A DNA stretch of 59,670 nt. Origin: Escherichia phage CAjan. A model generated the notes under the pieces. That model saw only the letters and a program-made list of their open reading frames with translations. It was not told the origin of the DNA and did not search any database. This document shows positions 7,468 through 50,592 of the stretch, piece by piece. Within the stretch, counting starts at the first letter, position 1. Every line of letters starts with the position of its first letter. The position numbers and the translations under genes are program-made. Where the stretch lies: the sequence record KP064094; one strand, written 5' to 3'.

Positions 7468-7848
7468 ATGAGCTTTCCTTACGAGCAGCTAGTTGAAGCT
7501 GCAAAGCAAATGATCAACGATGCTGGTGTTAACTGTACCCTTGTTGTTATGGAGCAAGGGGAAGGTCAAGATGAATGGGACGATCCGAGCGTTGAAAAAC
7601 GATACCCATTCATTGGAGCTTTCCTTTCACCGAAGGAAAAGATGATTGGCGGCAGTCTTGTTTCTGCTGGTGAACTGAAAGTGTTGACTTACCCAATGAC
7701 ACCTCCATTGACTCGCGATAAAGCAATGACTGCACGCATTGAGCGTGTGTCACCGGATGGGGAACTGGAAGTGTGGACAATAAATGAGTTTGTTGATACA
7801 CGACCAGCTAACGTTTCTGTTCTTTACACTTTTAAGGTGACGCGATAA
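7468..7848 (+). CDS. hypothetical head-tail joining protein
   Basis: 126 aa, ends in a TAATG stop/start overlap with the next gene within the late operon. Confidence 0.4.
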   Translation: MSFPYEQLVEAAKQMINDAGVNCTLVVMEQGEGQDEWDDPSVEKRYPFIGAFLSPKEKMIGGSLVSAGELKVLTYPMTPPLTRDKAMTARIERVSPDGELEVWTINEFVDTRPANVSVLYTFKVTR

Positions 7849-8255
7849 TGGGATTCGGGGCGGATATTCGACGTGCAAGTCAGAAGGTACTTGTTCAGAC
7901 AAGCGAACAGGCCAAAAAAGTCGTTGTCAAGTTCACAGAGAACGTGATACAGGATACTCCTGTTAAGACCGGACGCACAAAAGGTGGCTGGCGGTCATCC
8001 ATTGGTGCGCCGTATGCAACGGAAACTATCCGCCTCGATCCTACTGGAGAGATGGCTAAAGCTGAAGCCCGAGTTGTTGCACGCCAACTACCTAATGATA
8101 AAGACTGGACTTTCTATTTTAGCAACCTGACACCATATGCTGGCAAACTGGAGTTCTTAGGTTGGTCACAGCAAGCCCCGAACGGTATGGTTCGTATTAA
8201 CGTAGCGAAGCTTCCAATGTTGATACGTCAAGCTATAGCAGAAGGAAAACTATAA
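7848..8255 (+). CDS. HK97 gp10-like neck/tail component
   Basis: 135 aa containing DTPVKTGRTKGGW, resembling the DTPxDTG signature of the HK97 gp10 family. Confidence 0.5.
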   Translation: MGFGADIRRASQKVLVQTSEQAKKVVVKFTENVIQDTPVKTGRTKGGWRSSIGAPYATETIRLDPTGEMAKAEARVVARQLPNDKDWTFYFSNLTPYAGKLEFLGWSQQAPNGMVRINVAKLPMLIRQAIAEGKL

Positions 8256-23575: not shown

Positions 23576-23846
23576 AGGTATTGATAAAGTCGTTGAAGGA
23601 CTTTCTATTCGTGCTCATGTTATAGCAGACGAAGGTCATGATCAACTTACAATTATGAAATCTGCATTCAGCGATTTTAAGTCTCTTGGAAACTTAAGCG
23701 GGTTAATGACTGTGGTTTCGACCGGAAAATTAACCCAGCAGCAAATCAGTCTAGCTCAGCGTATTGCTGTTAAAGTTATTGCGGTACTTGGGATGATTGA
23801 AGCTGAAAAACCCAGTTCCAAGCAGGATAACGAAAGCGACCTTTAA
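23562..23846 (+). CDS. hypothetical protein
   Basis: 94-aa ORF with good SD (GAAGGTGA). Confidence 0.4.
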   Translation: MTKNEGIDKVVEGLSIRAHVIADEGHDQLTIMKSAFSDFKSLGNLSGLMTVVSTGKLTQQQISLAQRIAVKVIAVLGMIEAEKPSSKQDNESDL

Positions 23847-23857
23847 GGAGGTCTACT

Positions 23858-24061
23858 ATGTGTGGTAATACTAACCGTTGCTGTCTAGGCAGTCCTGCAA
23901 CACAAGCAGGTATACTTCAGGGGCAATTGGCTCAAGCAGCGTGTAATTGCAAAACTTTTCAACCAGTAGCTCCAACTCCTGTGTTTGTGAATGCTTTTGC
24001 ACCGCCTGTTTTCAATACTTTTGGCGTATACCCATACGGTGCTTTCTTTCGTATATTCTAA
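23858..24061 (+). CDS. small Cys-rich protein
   Basis: 67 aa with strong SD (AAGGAGG), 5 Cys; followed by a bidirectional terminator. Confidence 0.35.
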   Translation: MCGNTNRCCLGSPATQAGILQGQLAQAACNCKTFQPVAPTPVFVNAFAPPVFNTFGVYPYGAFFRIF

Positions 24062-44676: not shown

Positions 44677-45144
44677 TTATTGGATTGAACCGCGATCAAT
44701 TAACCATTGTTTCGCGTGCGCTTTAAAGATAATGCGGTAGTCATCGAGACTAATTTCCGCGCGGATGGAATCTTTAACTTCATACCACTGCCATTCACCA
44801 TTACTGAAGACAACCGGATTAAGCGGTAGAACGACCTTCCATCCTTTACGTTCTATTTTATACATCAGAACTGGATATCTGCCAAGCTCTTTAGCAGATT
44901 GGACAGTCTGCTTCCACCATGTGTTTACTTGTGGCGTAGCATGGTTTTTTACTTCAACCGCATGGTGGCATGTATTGCTGATATCACAACCACCGACAGC
45001 ACTTTGATTCTGGTTTCGCTGAGCAATAGGTTTTTCCGGTAACTGCATCCCCAGCTCTGCGTAGATTTCGGCATAAATTGCATTAAAGAAATCACATACT
45101 TCCCGCTCACCGCGTTGACCTTTAGCGCGAATATTTACTGCCAT
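44677..45144 (-). CDS. putative Holliday-junction resolvase-like PD-(D/E)xK nuclease
   Basis: about 155 aa from ATG 45144 (SD GGAGA); RGEREV...GGCDIS...AVEVKN pattern resembles Hjc/VRR-NUC type nucleases. Confidence 0.45.
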   Translation of the reverse strand: MAVNIRAKGQRGEREVCDFFNAIYAEIYAELGMQLPEKPIAQRNQNQSAVGGCDISNTCHHAVEVKNHATPQVNTWWKQTVQSAKELGRYPVLMYKIERKGWKVVLPLNPVVFSNGEWQWYEVKDSIRAEISLDDYRIIFKAHAKQWLIDRGSIQ

Positions 45145-45215
45145 GTTTGTCTCCATAACTTTAATGTAAAACACTTCATAAAGAATTTTATATTGAAGTT
45201 ATGTTGATCGCAAGG

Positions 45216-45249
45216 AACAAAAAAGCCCAGGCATAAGGATTCCTGGGCT
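45216..45249 (-). terminator. intrinsic terminator
   Basis: GCCCAGG / CCTGGGC stem followed by TTTTTTGT on the minus strand. Confidence 0.5.
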
Positions 45250-45561
45250 CTCTTGATTGTCGGATAGCTTACTTTGACTGCCGTCTTCGTCTATCCTGGC
45301 CTACTTGTACAGCCTCGCCAAAGGCTGGTGACGGTTTGGTACATCTGGCGCCGTCTCGTTAAACATCGTTTACATCGTTCAGTAAGTTGCGGGTTTATCC
45401 TGTCCGCTCCAGGAAGCCCAGCGAAAGTAGTTGCTGTAAGGAGGTACAGCTACCGCTTTCAAGGGCTTGAGTTAAGCATCGTTCACTAAGTTAATGTTGT
45501 TAAATTGTTAAACCTCGTTAACTGTGGTTATCTTAAAGGATGCAGTCTTGAATGGCAAGCT

Positions 45562-45879
45562 TCAATTTTGCGCGGTTCCCTTTGCCGCTTTTGGTGCTAA
45601 AGTACCGTCGTCTAACATCAACTCAAAACCTGTTACTTGATCGGTTGGAACAATAGGGTAATTCATAATAGCCATGTGGATACGATTCCCTCCGTCACAT
45701 TCATCGATGTATTCATTACCCCAATAGTATAAATGACCATCTCTTCGAATATCCATTGCTGTTGGGAAATCTACAAGAATTCTTTTGATTTCTTTTCGTC
45801 CTTCTTTATGTAGATTAGTTTCAATACGGATAAGCTCCGCATAAATTGCTTCACAGATAGTGTTTACAATACTCATCAT
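45562..45879 (-). CDS. hypothetical protein
   Basis: 105-aa ORF with SD AAGGGG. Confidence 0.4.
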   Translation of the reverse strand: MMSIVNTICEAIYAELIRIETNLHKEGRKEIKRILVDFPTAMDIRRDGHLYYWGNEYIDECDGGNRIHMAIMNYPIVPTDQVTGFELMLDDGTLAPKAAKGTAQN

Positions 45880-46073: not shown

Positions 46074-46314
46074 TTTACACCTCACAAAATATACATAAAC
46101 CAGAAATAACCAGCTACGAAAATAGCACCCGCAAATAATTTTAAAATCTCGAACATTGTTCCCTCCGTTAACTTTATGCTGTAAGTATAGCAGGACTTGC
46201 GATGTATGCAACAACTTTAGACTTGAAATACATCTATGAAATAGCACGATTTGCCTTTACCTCTGATCCGTCTAGCTGTACTATTAACCCATAAACAGAG
46301 CGGAGGATTACAAA

Positions 46315-46539
46315 ATGGTCATGCTGAATAAAGTATATAGCACAATGGGCGCGGATTATAAAGTTGTACGTCACCCGCGTACTGGTAAATTTGAAGCATA
46401 TATCCGTCCGATGGGTGAAGGTTGGATGTATTACGGTACTTATGACGACGCTGAGCAAGCTTATAAAGAAGCGGAAAGTGCCGCGGAAGCATCCGAAATT
46501 ATGGCAAGGTACGACGTTGATGATTACTACCTTAACTAA
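46315..46539 (+). CDS. hypothetical protein (isolated plus-strand gene)
   Basis: 74 aa, SD GGAGGA, own promoter-like element and bidirectional terminator; opposite orientation to all neighbours. Confidence 0.5.
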   Translation: MVMLNKVYSTMGADYKVVRHPRTGKFEAYIRPMGEGWMYYGTYDDAEQAYKEAESAAEASEIMARYDVDDYYLN

Positions 46540-46543
46540 CAAT

Positions 46544-46567
46544 AAAGGGCCAAATGGCCCTTTATTT
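46544..46567. terminator. bidirectional terminator
   Basis: AAAGGGCC-AAAT-GGCCCTTTATTT between convergent genes 46315-46539 (+) and 46566-48908 (-). Confidence 0.6.
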
Positions 46568-48908
46568 ATTCCTCTTCTCCTAAGTTTGCCATAATACCTT
46601 CAACATCTTGCGTAATGCGCCAAGCCGCGCCAGTGAATCCCAGTTTGATAGTCTCCTCCCGTGTTACCGGAACAAGGGCACCCATAGCAACCATCTCTTT
46701 GATTGTAGACTCAATTGCTGCGGACAATCCGTGGTGATAGTTTTTAAACGCGGACTTACTTGCAAGACGAGTAGTAATATCACCCCGCGTGATAATACCT
46801 TCTTTACGCAGATCTACACGTTTAACTTTCACCCAATCTTTAGTTAGATAATTCACACAAACCTGGCACATAGTACGGATACGAGCTTCGTCATTAGTAC
46901 CGATACCCCCACTATGCCATTCCTTCATAATGATATCCTGTCCATGACGCACAAAGTCCAAGGCCCATTGAACATGATAGGTCTGCACAACCGGATTGAT
47001 CCAGTTTTCTCCCACAGCTAACAGGGCGGATAGACGTAACACCTTCAGGTGCGCACGGTTCCACGGCTGGCGGATTGCTTCGTCTTTGGTTGCGTTAATA
47101 TTACGGTCGCATTCGTCGTTAAACTGATCACATAATGCTTCCGCATCCGGGCTAAACTGCACTTCAATACTTTGATGCTTTGCCATTGCGACTAAGGTGT
47201 GGTTAACAAGATGACACACCATATCCCGCAAATGCTGATCCATTGTAGTCTGCTGGTTCTTGTTTAAAGGTGGTCGATCCCCTTCATAGCGGACAACATG
47301 GAAACGGGATAAGAAACCATCCTCCATCATTTCACGCGTCAACGCTTCAAAAAACGTGTCCGGTGTCGTTTCGCCCATGATGCTATAGGCCACACCTTGT
47401 TGAGCTTCCGTATTATTAGCCTTATCAGAATAAGACATACCACCAACAATAGACATCTGACCGGACTTTTGATAAATATCGGTAAGGTCATTCTTGAAGC
47501 TTTGCATTGGTGAACCTGCTGGCGCCGTTGCCATTGCTTTAATAATCTTACCAAACTCACCGTTCAAGTTGATAAAAGATTGTTTGTCCGCAAAAGATTT
47601 ACGCAGTGCGGAGCCGGAAGCGCATCGGTCAAAGGATACAAAGCTATGAATCTGCGGAAACGGTTCCTGAAGCTGGCTAACTATATTAGATAGCCCACTG
47701 TTCAACGTTTCTTTACCAACACCAGAACGAGCAATAAGGACGAAATATCCATTAAGACCCGATTGCGGAATCTGCCAGACCTTCCCGCATACCCCAGCCA
47801 TAAAGCCTAGCGCTGTCACAATAGAAATTTCTTTCACTGGTCGGACGGAGGCTTTATAGATGTATTTCGCAAGCTCCCCAGCAAGCCCCGGCGGCCAGTC
47901 AATAGCGGTTGCATCAATAGATGTACTTTCTGCAACTACTGTCTGCCCCTGTGTTGTTTCAACAGTTACGGGCATTTCCGCTACCTGCTGCATTGCACTG
48001 TGTGCCGCTTGCATACGGGCAGCATAATCCCGCGCCAGCGCCGCTACGTTTTCCTGGGCAATGCGCTCACGCTCCATGCGACCGCGACACATACGCAAGC
48101 AACGGTCAATATGAACATTGTTCTTATTAGCCTTCTCACGTTTGCCCAGCGCACTATAACGGAACAGACGGCGACATTGCTCATTACTTTCCGTGTAGAA
48201 TGCATACATAGAGATAAGGGCAAGGTCTGCTTCAGACTGGGAAGGGAATCCCATTTCAACCCATTCACCGTTAAATAACCGTGCATACTTATCGCCGTTA
48301 TCCGCTTCAAGTGCACGCTGATGAATAGTTGCATCATCTTCTACCGGATCTTTTTCTACCAGTTCAATTTCATATGTCTTGCGCTGAAGATCAATTTCAT
48401 TCACAAGCATAGTAAGGTAATGATCACGTTCTGCAACTGGTTTGTTGTAGACGGGATTGCCCGTGCAGATAATAAAACGCTCCTGACTATAAACCTCGAC
48501 ACCATCACGTCGACGACCTTTACCGATGTTACCTCTTAACCACAGGTGGACACCCAGGCCTGAGCGACTTACTTCGGTGTAAGTATCGAACGCAGTCATG
48601 ATCTGTTCGAAGCGGCGCAACTGCTCTGGCGTCGTGTGCTTCTTGGGATCAGGTTCATTGGTTGCGTTCTTCACATCCAGGTCGATGCAGGTGAACGGGT
48701 CTTGTGCAGTAAGCACGAATCCAATATAAGGTTTATTAAAATGAGCGGCGCAACCTTTGGCAGCTTCAAACGTCATAAGCATATCCGGATCGGTAACGTC
48801 CGCCGCCATCAAACGTCCAATATCGCTATCCCATACCAACGGCTTTTTATCCGCATCGGCCACCGCCCATTGTGGGAAAGCTTTAATTTCAGCGGGAAAC
48901 AGTTCCAT
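46566..48908 (-). CDS. primase-helicase (archaeo-eukaryotic primase-type domain fused to P-loop NTPase-like domain)
   Basis: 780 aa; N-terminal AEP-like motifs (CIDLDV, SGLGVHLW) and central P-loop-like SGVGKETLNSG. Confidence 0.6.
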   Translation of the reverse strand: MELFPAEIKAFPQWAVADADKKPLVWDSDIGRLMAADVTDPDMLMTFEAAKGCAAHFNKPYIGFVLTAQDPFTCIDLDVKNATNEPDPKKHTTPEQLRRFEQIMTAFDTYTEVSRSGLGVHLWLRGNIGKGRRRDGVEVYSQERFIICTGNPVYNKPVAERDHYLTMLVNEIDLQRKTYEIELVEKDPVEDDATIHQRALEADNGDKYARLFNGEWVEMGFPSQSEADLALISMYAFYTESNEQCRRLFRYSALGKREKANKNNVHIDRCLRMCRGRMERERIAQENVAALARDYAARMQAAHSAMQQVAEMPVTVETTQGQTVVAESTSIDATAIDWPPGLAGELAKYIYKASVRPVKEISIVTALGFMAGVCGKVWQIPQSGLNGYFVLIARSGVGKETLNSGLSNIVSQLQEPFPQIHSFVSFDRCASGSALRKSFADKQSFINLNGEFGKIIKAMATAPAGSPMQSFKNDLTDIYQKSGQMSIVGGMSYSDKANNTEAQQGVAYSIMGETTPDTFFEALTREMMEDGFLSRFHVVRYEGDRPPLNKNQQTTMDQHLRDMVCHLVNHTLVAMAKHQSIEVQFSPDAEALCDQFNDECDRNINATKDEAIRQPWNRAHLKVLRLSALLAVGENWINPVVQTYHVQWALDFVRHGQDIIMKEWHSGGIGTNDEARIRTMCQVCVNYLTKDWVKVKRVDLRKEGIITRGDITTRLASKSAFKNYHHGLSAAIESTIKEMVAMGALVPVTREETIKLGFTGAAWRITQDVEGIMANLGEEE

Positions 48909-49962: not shown

Positions 49963-49967
49963 ATAGC

Positions 49968-50260
49968 CTCCGATAGGGTATTGCCTTAACCCTATGGTAA
50001 GACCCTCCCTATTAAATTGCAAGAGTTATTGTAAAACAATAGGTATAGGGTGCAATACAGGGTTCATATAGGGTAACCCTATAAACACCCTATAAAATAC
50101 CCTCCCTATGCAGCTTTCTAAATTTATAGTTTTAGTTTACCCCTTGCGCCCCCGCAGAAAAACTAAAGATAGGGGTACTAGGGTAAACATTGGCAAATAC
50201 CCTATACCCTACTCCCTATACTATGATTCTAAAAAATTTGGTGTATACCCCTATAAACTT
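49968..50260. repeat. array of CCCTAT/ATAGGG repeats (iteron-like) followed by AT-rich tract to about 50420
   Basis: At least 12 copies of the CCCTAT(A) core in both orientations within about 300 bp, including palindrome ATAGGGTAACCCTAT and runs such as ACCCTATACCCTACTCCCTATAC. Confidence 0.6.
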
Positions 50261-50592
50261 ATAAACTTTCAGTCAACTAACTAAAATAAAACTAATTAAA
50301 CTAATATTAATAATAACTATAAATATATATAAAATAAGGATTTATTATTATTGTATATAGTACCTATTGGTATTATGTGATGAGTTTATAGTCACTAAAT
50401 AAACTCTATAAATTTTAATAAACCTGAACGGATGCAGATCAAAAATGAGAAGTCAAGTGCTTTTGAGGGAAATTTATTGAACTATTGTGATCGGAAGGTA
50501 TATCAAGCTATAATGCGCTTAATCGCGGGATATTGGAGGAGGACTTTATTGCGCGGTTAACCGGACCAGTAGGAGGGCTGGCCCGGAGTAGT

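Follow-up and report, generated by a model that had tools for sequence, protein, structure and literature searches.

A probable gene for a structured non-coding RNA in a long intergenic gap of Escherichia phage CAjan

Introduction

Seuratviruses are present in widely used collections of Escherichia coli phages, and research on them deals with the 7-deazaguanine modification of their DNA and with the ways in which they interact with defence systems. The sequence of one of them, Escherichia phage CAjan (record KP064094; 59,670 nucleotides (nt), the whole of which was analysed, is called the window below and supplies the coordinates), contains a 417-base-pair (bp) gap at 45145-45561, between the genes at 44677-45144 and 45562-45879, as a first-pass annotation of the sequence had reported. 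That annotation had noticed a terminator hairpin and two clusters of short repeats in the gap and had offered three readings: an iteron-like element, a regulatory element or a small RNA (sRNA) gene. Here we describe the anatomy of the gap, compare it among related phages and argue that it probably holds a stand-alone minus-strand gene, co-directional with the genes on either side, for a structured non-coding RNA of ~305 nt (Table 1). We then weigh this reading against a replication origin, a cis-acting RNA, a toxin-antitoxin-like module and small proteins, and consider what the RNA may do.

The locus and its genomic setting

The window genome belongs to the genus Seuratvirus (Queuovirinae), and its minus strand carries all genes from ~24 to 50 kb, both genes flanking the gap included. 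The gap and its flanks are 97-99.5% identical to those of the E. coli Seuratvirus phages Seurat, slur01, Greed and KS_A3 and of several phages with K-12 hosts (five of the matching records have E. coli K-12 as the host, and we take these phages to be members of the BASEL collection), and 79-81% identical to those of Salmonella phage STP-SP5. The gap had been described as unusually long, and it is: under a permissive open reading frame (ORF) call (ATG start, at least 40 amino acids (aa)), no stretch of the 59.7-kb window without ORFs is longer than 45157-45561 (the next measures 241 bp), and in the curated record of phage Seurat the gap is one of the two largest without annotation (the other, of 631 bp, corresponds to window ~49963-50590). 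The element within the gap has a GC content of 47%, against 44.7% for the genome.

Table 1. Features of the gap and its surroundings (positions in the window, given 5' to 3' for the RNA and its signals)
Feature	Position	Strand	Details
Predicted non-coding RNA, ~305 nt	45525-45216	minus	Start inferred at ~45523-45525; 3' end in the U-run 45216-45223
Predicted sigma-70-type promoter P1	45558-45530	minus	-35 TTGCCA (45558-45553), 17-nt spacer, -10 TAAGAT (45535-45530); consensus scan
5' segment, mostly unpaired	45525-45468	minus	Five UUAAC repeats (plus-strand starts 45517, 45507, 45499, 45490, 45471) and the first AACUUAGUGAACGAUG copy (45492-45477)
Long bulged hairpin, 20 pairs	45467-45415	minus	Apical loop carries the invariant ACCUCCUUA (45445-45437)
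Compact hairpin or candidate H-type pseudoknot	45414-45389	minus	Stem 1 UCCUG (45414-45410)/CAGGA (45402-45398)
Unpaired linker	45388-45356	minus	Second AACUUACUGAACGAUG copy and tandem nonamers UGAACGAUG-UAAACGAUG-UUUAACGAG
Hairpin GACGG/CCGUC	45355-45330	minus	16-nt loop CGCCAGAUGUACCAAA, identical in 19/19 sequences
Hairpin CAGCCU/AGGCUG	45327-45310	minus	Three pairs vary one-sidedly, always to G-U, paired only in the minus sense
Hairpin GGAUAG/CUAUCC	45296-45262	minus	Inner 3-bp stem GAC/GUC (45285-45283/45278-45276); five pairs with compensatory changes
Rho-independent terminator	45249-45216	minus	AGCCCAGG (45249-45242), 10-nt loop, CCUGGGCU (45231-45224), then UUUUUUGUU
Predicted promoter P2	45213-45185	minus	TTGCGA-17-TAAAAT, ahead of the PD-(D/E)XK nuclease gene; outside the RNA, marks its boundary
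Downstream gene	44677-45144	minus	PD-(D/E)XK nuclease; RusA-like annotation elsewhere; matches PDDEXK_15 and phrog_244 (RusA-like)
Upstream gene	45562-45879	minus	105-aa protein without assigned function
NrS-1-like primase-polymerase/helicase gene	46566-48908		~1 kb upstream of the element

Transcription signals

The element is bracketed by a predicted promoter and an intrinsic terminator on the same strand. P1 starts 3 nt past the stop codon of the upstream gene, and in STP-SP5 its hexamers are kept or improved amid surrounding substitutions (TTGACA-17-TAATAT); it is this position and this conservation that suggest a working promoter. At the other end, the hairpin that the first-pass annotation had placed at 45216-45249 without assigning it to a strand is present, and it is a terminator for minus-strand transcripts only, because in the plus-strand view the paired arms (45224-45231/45242-45249) have an A-run before them and no T-run after them. 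A consensus scan missed it, its loop being longer than the 8-nt limit of that scan. The -35 hexamer of P2 begins 2 nt past the U-run, and the depositors of the SA126VB record independently annotated a promoter at the equivalent position.

Both the terminator and P2 are kept in STP-SP5 although an extra, unrelated gene comes next there. In a variant lineage (OddieOddie, Dru_SM1, SA126VB and ERZ1034925) the same position is occupied by a non-homologous hairpin, GCGCAGCGU/ACGUUGCGC followed by UUUUUUAUU, again with a promoter after it. This arrangement suggests that a terminator has been selected at one position in two unrelated forms, and we regard it as the strongest single argument for an RNA product. 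An Hfq-dependent sRNA would have a 3' terminator hairpin with a U-tail of at least 6 nt and would bind Hfq; the element has the 3' hairpin with its UUUUUUGUU tail, and its 5' segment contains AAN-rich stretches.

Adjoining the element, the flank at 45145-45215, which overlaps P2 and the 5' untranslated region (UTR) of the nuclease gene, has a GC content of 28% and contains an AT-rich palindrome (45154-45203; 23-nt arms, 83% complementary). This palindrome, which itself overlaps the predicted P2 and the same 5' UTR, is recognisable in the STP-SP5 alignment despite the different downstream gene there. Its role may be that of an operator bound by a dimeric regulator; alternatively, in read-through RNA, it may form a hairpin that masks the ribosome-binding site.

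Conserved RNA structure

The covariation alignment comprises 19 distinct versions of the element. RNAalifold places 72 pairs on it, 11 of them compensatory, and our pruned model retains five hairpins (one drawn as a pseudoknot) with 49 pairs, which are 99.4% paired across the alignment and include 12 pairs changed on both sides. Column shuffles leave 3.5 ± 1.3 double-change pairs and in 0/500 cases reach 12, and slid controls, in which the 3' partners were moved by 1-3 columns, retain 1-2 double-change pairs and 27-45% pairing. Folded as a single sequence, the window RNA has a free energy of -94.6 kcal/mol (z = -3.8); the corresponding z-scores of its relatives are -3.3 for OddieOddie and -2.2 for STP-SP5. 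The alignment also identifies the functional strand as the minus strand: it holds 60 G-U cells, and these fit the minus sense only, because the opposite sense would give A-C mismatches in their place; pairing falls from 99.4% to 93.2% when the alignment is read in the plus sense.

The evidence is spread unevenly over the five helices. The long hairpin is the clearest case: it is only 62% identical between the window and STP-SP5 and yet remains paired, the differences comprising six double changes, three single changes accommodated through G-U and one break. In the compact hairpin that follows, we model a candidate pseudoknot, whose stem 2 would pair GCGG (45407-45404) with CCGC (45392-45389) across an A-rich loop 3, UAAAC; a C-G pair of stem 2 is U-A in STP-SP5, and one position of stem 1 is U-A in 9 and U-G in 10 sequences. 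The GACGG/CCGUC hairpin has five invariant pairs and hence yields no covariation evidence. In the GGAUAG/CUAUCC hairpin, phage PLYYY01, although 97% identical overall, has one A-U to U-A flip in the inner 3-bp stem. A larger divergence is found in the 3' module of OddieOddie, Dru_SM1, SA126VB, VogelGryff, SA80RD and one metagenome contig. Identity falls to ~50% over the final ~90 nt of the element, and both nested stems are kept.

Two further pairings were set aside. A 5' hairpin that RNAalifold draws in 45468-45525 is not conserved, STP-SP5 being without 8 nt of it. A long-range helix CCUGG (45413-45409)/CCAGG (45299-45295) is broken in the OddieOddie type and clashes with a covarying helix.

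The anti-Shine-Dalgarno loop

The apical loop of the long hairpin, a feature absent from the first-pass annotation, exposes the nonamer ACCUCCUUA, which is the 3'-terminal anti-Shine-Dalgarno sequence of 16S ribosomal RNA (rRNA). It is invariant in 19/19 sequences while its stem covaries, and we estimate the probability of meeting a given nonamer by chance in ~600 strand-positions at ~0.002. Its plus-strand reading, TAAGGAGGT, is not a ribosome-binding site in the gap, because no start codon follows at a usable distance. Elsewhere in the window TAAGGAGGT has one perfect copy, the ribosome-binding site of a 67-aa Cys-rich ORF at 23858, and the match of the loop to that site ends at 9 bp. Among the listed plus-strand ORFs with 40 aa or more, this one (MCGNTNRCC..., window 23844-24061) is the last ahead of the minus-strand genes, which start near 24.1 kb.

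A wider resemblance of the hairpin, reaching past the nonamer to the 3'-terminal 20 nt of 16S rRNA (15/20 in the window), is not kept in STP-SP5 and was discarded. An RNAduplex target scan of both window strands returned long imperfect duplexes only, with no clear outlier.

Repeats and internal duplication

The repeats that first drew attention to the gap are largely as they had been reported. CATCGTT occurs three times (at 45364, 45373 and 45477), which is three of only six plus-strand copies in the window, and (C/G)TAAGTT occurs twice, at 45382 and 45486. Of three copies claimed for TCGTTAA(A)C, two are exact (TCGTTAAAC at 45356 and TCGTTAAC at 45515) and the third (TTGTTAAAC at 45505) is inexact. 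The two clusters into which these motifs had been grouped are real and non-random and match the RNA segments 45356-45388 and 45468-45525. Thus the exact nonamer TGAACGATG has only two copies on either strand of the window, both in the gap, and minus-strand TTAAC, which has 121 copies in 59.7 kb, is found six times within 165 nt here. Motif length ranges from 5 to 9 nt, and the spacing is irregular (10, 8, 10 and 18 nt); the nonamers form 2-3 tandem copies plus one copy 104 nt away, with the tandem consensus (U/A)RAACGAUG, and Dru_SM1 holds one extra 9-nt unit. Among related genomes their retention is partial: AACGAUG is kept three times in STP-SP5, and several TTAAC copies are lost there.

Much of this pattern appears to have a single source, again one that had not been noticed before. 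The element contains an internal tandem duplication of ~100 nt (45492-45393 versus 45388-45289) whose local alignment scores 40; 1000 shuffles gave 17.3 ± 3.0 and not once a score as high as 40. Both units share AACUUA(G/C)UGAACGAUG, a loop segment AG(C/A)UGUACC and CAGGAUA(A/G)AC, and they have diverged strongly and fold differently. Judged from this alignment, the repeated motifs are largely the product of an old internal duplication, to which the tandem nonamers and the UUAAC repeats are added. The nonamers, the UUAAC repeats and the shared motifs all lie in segments that the conserved structure leaves unpaired, which is where the seeds or protein-binding sites of a regulatory RNA would be expected.

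Coding potential and RNA class

The gap has no conserved reading frame. It contains short ORFs of 27-71 aa, but the window, STP-SP5 and OddieOddie each have a different set. Of the 71-aa plus-strand ORF, OddieOddie keeps just 53 aa, and in STP-SP5 the frame is lost after ~10 residues; the minus-strand mini-ORFs likewise change frame between lineages, and the variants are set apart by indels of 1, 2, 3 and 8 nt. Several GenBank records (e.g., KS_A3, SD04, SLUR76 and RCIP0359) place hypothetical proteins of 30 and 71 aa on the plus strand of the gap, and others stretch the nuclease coding sequence to 558 nt, across P2 and the terminator. These in-gap protein calls and the extended nuclease coding sequence, which are not conserved between lineages, are probably annotation artefacts.

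The element resembles no catalogued RNA family. Rfam 15, whose families include the preQ1-I/II/III riboswitches, 6S, tmRNA, HEARO, ribozymes, CsrB and known phage sRNAs, gave no match at gathering score in the whole window, and a relaxed search (E-value up to 10) of 45100-45620 gave chance-level matches only, the best being Thr_leader with 16.6 bits against a gathering score of 55, in an alignment to the terminator; ARAGORN found no transfer RNA or transfer-messenger RNA gene in the window. Two candidate classes were rejected. A preQ1 riboswitch, brought to mind by the 7-deazaguanine biology of these phages, has no covariance-model match. A CsrA sponge of the CsrB/RsmZ type would have only three CAGGA sites, and the loop copy reads CAGGG in 10/19 sequences, which fits the U-A/U-G pairing and not the need for GGA. 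What is found here are the generic marks of a stand-alone sRNA gene: a predicted promoter and a terminator on the same strand, compensatory substitutions and no conserved ORF.

Distribution and neighbouring genes

The element is present throughout the genus and confined to it. All 33 phage records that carry the neighbouring gene also carry the element (33/33), and it is better conserved than the neighbouring protein, which is 43% identical in STP-SP5 and 58% in slur01, where the element is 81% and 98% identical. A blastn search of phages at E-values up to 10 returned Seuratvirus matches only. Scans of IMG/VR (protein-based and by DNA pattern) and of metagenomes returned near-identical Seuratvirus contigs plus chance matches only, and an 18-mer scan of genome contigs returned only chance matches in unrelated bacteria. 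No second copy was found in the window genome. In the primase-flanking stretches of Nipunavirus JG012 and Nonagvirus JenK1 there is no comparable gap downstream of the primase gene and no nhmmer match. The literature that we searched holds nothing relevant on a non-coding RNA or a replication origin of Seuratvirus or Queuovirinae, and no Seuratvirus transcriptome study describing the region.

The gene directly downstream of the element varies: its product is the PD-(D/E)XK nuclease in the window, an HNH endonuclease in OddieOddie and, in STP-SP5, a 100-aa protein without assigned function. In the lineage with the diverged 3' module an HNH homing-endonuclease gene directly follows the element (OddieOddie, locus L003, 1889-2374; Dru_SM1, locus L004, 1861-2373; SA126VB, locus L038, 1-173). 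This pattern fits intron-less homing at an RNA gene, with a diverged adjacent tract of co-conversion or self-immunity and the RNA fold kept. In KS_A3 an HNH gene instead sits between the nuclease and dUTPase genes.

On the far side of the upstream gene, the 241-bp ORF-free stretch mentioned above occupies 46074-46314 (region 46074-46565), upstream of the sole plus-strand gene listed in 45.5-49 kb. This gene encodes a 74-aa protein with a weak AP2-domain match (E-value 0.003, below the Pfam cut-off), and in phage Seurat a bidirectional terminator is annotated between it and the convergent primase gene.

Alternative explanations

The alternative that survives best, which we nevertheless hold to be unlikely, is that the gap acts as DNA: a replication origin or priming site in which the phage primase-helicase, or some other phage protein, would bind TGAACGATG/TTAAC iterons, with possible activation by transcription from P1 and with hairpins that might form in single-stranded DNA. 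The gene for an NrS-1-like primase-polymerase/helicase is indeed close by, and the 28%-GC stretch with its palindrome adjoins the element at 45145-45215; however, the element itself, at 47% GC, is not AT-rich, and the cumulative GC skew makes no turn near 45 kb. The repeats are non-random, clustered and variable in copy number, but they are 5-9 nt long and irregularly spaced, several are lost in STP-SP5, and they lie where the RNA is unpaired. TTTGGTAC, found on the plus strand of the invariant 16-nt loop, is a weak 6/8 match to the recognition site of the NrS-1 primase, TTTGGTTA (PMC8718748). That two non-homologous terminators occupy one and the same position speaks instead for an RNA product.

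A further lead comes from unrelated viral contigs of the L047 family, which hold GTGAACGAT three times and two inverted CCGTTCAC directly downstream of an ORF with a DUF5906 domain (taken by us as helicase-like), a layout resembling that of a rep-ori locus; these matches were found by searching for the motif itself, and the resulting selection bias makes them a weak lead. The array lies at 7604-7878 of IMGVR_UViG_3300042330_000289, after a 554-aa ORF, and similar arrays with nearly the same nonamer occur in L052, L063 and L064. The nonamer pattern scan as a whole returned 21 unrelated viral loci, mostly 9-nt tandem repeats in coding or other contexts.

The window also offers a textbook-like candidate for an origin elsewhere, at 49963-50480. 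In this region (probably non-coding to ~50590), CCCTAT(A)/ATAGGG(T) repeats, more than 12 in all and in either orientation, stand ahead of a very AT-rich tract (50270-50420, 17% GC). The region lies near the minimum of the cumulative GC skew, and it looks like an origin with iterons and an unwinding element or a major early control region. With this better candidate at hand, the iteron-like element proposed in the first-pass annotation is unsupported as the main explanation of the gap. An origin would be compatible with an RNA product, and the nonamers may have a DNA-level role as well; were the locus an origin, it would define the replication start of the genus Seuratvirus.

Slightly less probable again is a cis-acting RNA, either a structured 3' UTR of the 105-aa gene or a 5' leader (an attenuator, a riboswitch or a processive antitermination element of the put or EAR kind). 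The upstream gene is without a terminator of its own, so that read-through must cross the element, which is retained although the downstream gene differs between lineages, and the terminator stands ~70 nt upstream of the next start codon. A gene-specific leader is unlikely, however, because the downstream gene varies. The sole candidate antiterminator pairing, between CUGGGCU (45415-45421) and the 5' arm of the terminator, is lost in STP-SP5, where the former is changed, and in the OddieOddie type, where the latter is changed; no riboswitch or leader family matches even at E-values up to 10, and the conserved predicted P2 directly follows the terminator.

The two remaining alternatives are very improbable. 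In loci of the ToxIN type a promoter, direct RNA repeats, a terminator and a toxin gene follow one another, and the promoter, the two ~100-nt direct repeats, the terminator, the nuclease gene and the candidate pseudoknot found here superficially resemble them; were the locus a module like those of type III toxin-antitoxin systems, or a decoy by which the phage imitates an antitoxin, processing of the repeats would yield pseudoknotted units that neutralise an endoribonuclease. Here, though, the two repeats have diverged and fold differently, and the downstream protein, which has a separate predicted promoter, is a PD-(D/E)XK or RusA-like DNA nuclease that varies between lineages. Among the neighbours there is no ToxN/AbiQ-type match, the sole PADLOC match being that of a homing-endonuclease model to the HNH gene. 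Lastly, one or more small proteins encoded in the gap, for which the 27-71 aa ORFs and the 30- and 71-aa annotations might speak, hardly fit ORFs that are shortened or frame-shifted between lineages, and a non-functional remnant hardly fits compensatory changes and a conservation stronger than that of the neighbouring protein.

Weighing the RNA gene

Several observations weigh against a stand-alone RNA gene. Diversity is low: only about four independent lineages carry the covariation (STP-SP5, the OddieOddie-type 3' module, PLYYY01 and UViG_3300029643), and the structure model was built from the same sequences that were used to score it. DNA hairpins tolerate G-T pairs too, so that a single-stranded-DNA structure of the same sense would fit the asymmetry of the G-U pairs. 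P1, a prediction, matches the consensus at only 9/12 positions, and promoter-scan matches are not enriched in the 2-kb region (6 found versus 5.1 expected in shuffles). Because the upstream 105-aa gene lacks a terminator of its own, the RNA could also arise as a long 3' UTR or through processing of one. Finally, the phage genome contains no convincing complement of the exposed motifs, only 3-mismatch matches on the wrong strand or in the wrong context, and the element has no similarity of at least 20 nt to E. coli genomes.

Set against the alternatives, we still favour the RNA gene. Of the readings offered by the first-pass annotation, that of a small RNA gene gains from the promoter and terminator, the covariation of five helices, the G-U asymmetry and the lack of a conserved ORF, whereas the iteron reading is unlikely. 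We infer that a discrete RNA accumulates, that it is made early in infection by host RNA polymerase and that it acts in trans.

Proposed mechanism and significance

In the model that we propose, host RNA polymerase would initiate at the sigma-70-type P1 just past the upstream stop codon and transcribe, in order, an unpaired 5' segment with five UUAAC repeats, the long hairpin presenting ACCUCCUUA, the small hairpin or pseudoknot, the nonamer linker and three hairpins. Transcription would end at the strong intrinsic terminator and be restarted for the downstream genes by the predicted P2. The two halves of the RNA would descend from the ~100-nt tandem duplication, which would be the source of the repeated motifs.

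As to function, we tentatively suggest, as one possibility among several, a regulatory or decoy RNA that works through its exposed invariant segments, namely the anti-Shine-Dalgarno loop, the 16-nt loop CGCCAGAUGUACCAAA and the duplicated nonamer segments. The anti-Shine-Dalgarno loop would pair with strong Shine-Dalgarno sites and so block translation, or would mimic the 3' end of 16S rRNA for a factor that binds this end, and the repeated nonamers would provide a second seed or a platform for protein binding. This loop provides a concrete and directly testable hypothesis. A more specific version, which we put forward as speculation with little expectation that it is right, is a takeover or counter-defence RNA that mimics the 16S 3' end: ACCUCCUUA would sequester the strong Shine-Dalgarno sites of certain host or phage messenger RNAs, or would divert a host factor or a defence nuclease that recognises the anti-Shine-Dalgarno tail of the ribosome, with the duplicated UGAACGAUG segments as the second platform. 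If this is true, a virulent coliphage would be using a purely RNA-based mechanism of a kind not described so far.

The element would, on balance, represent a new RNA family of a known class, the stand-alone phage sRNA genes, unannotated or mis-annotated in GenBank. If so, it would call for a new Rfam family and a correction of annotations, and it would offer an entry, tractable in K-12, to RNA-based control of infection by a virulent siphovirus.

Comparison with known systems

Among known replication origins, the ori/crr of phage P4 has octamer iterons in two ~120-bp direct repeats, and SaPI rep-ori loci likewise lie near a primase-helicase gene. The element resembles them in its short direct repeats, its two ~100-bp direct repeats and the nearby primase-helicase gene, and its nonamer core TGAAC resembles the reverse complement of the P4 octamer (GGTGAACA). 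It differs from iteron origins in that it is not AT-rich and its repeats are few and irregular, and in its RNA-type covariation, its G-U asymmetry and its bracketing by promoter and terminator.

With the antitoxin RNAs ToxI and CptI the element shares the order promoter, repeats, terminator and gene and, possibly, pseudoknotted units; here the units are diverged, there is no ToxN/CptN-like toxin and the downstream gene is variable.

Several Gram-positive chromosomal RNAs, the hairpins of Staphylococcus aureus RNAIII and the RsaE/RoxS sRNAs, direct C-rich or anti-Shine-Dalgarno-like loops with UCCC-type motifs against the Shine-Dalgarno sites of validated targets. The long hairpin is like these in that its apical loop exposes a pyrimidine-rich complement of ribosome-binding sites, which here is a full 9-nt copy of the 16S anti-Shine-Dalgarno sequence; it is unlike them in that the sole other perfect TAAGGAGGT in the phage precedes the 67-aa ORF.

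The closest parallels are the stand-alone phage and prophage sRNAs with their own promoter and intrinsic terminator, such as DicF, IpeX, RNA C/D of phage T4 and the sRNAs of Pseudomonas phages. Known from its sequence alone, the element departs from this group in its lack of Rfam similarity, in its length of ~305 nt, which exceeds that of most base-pairing sRNAs, and in its internal duplication. It agrees with this group in being a short, structured non-coding unit, with no conserved ORF, among early or DNA-metabolism genes, with a sigma-70-like promoter and a U-run hairpin, and in belonging to one phage lineage.

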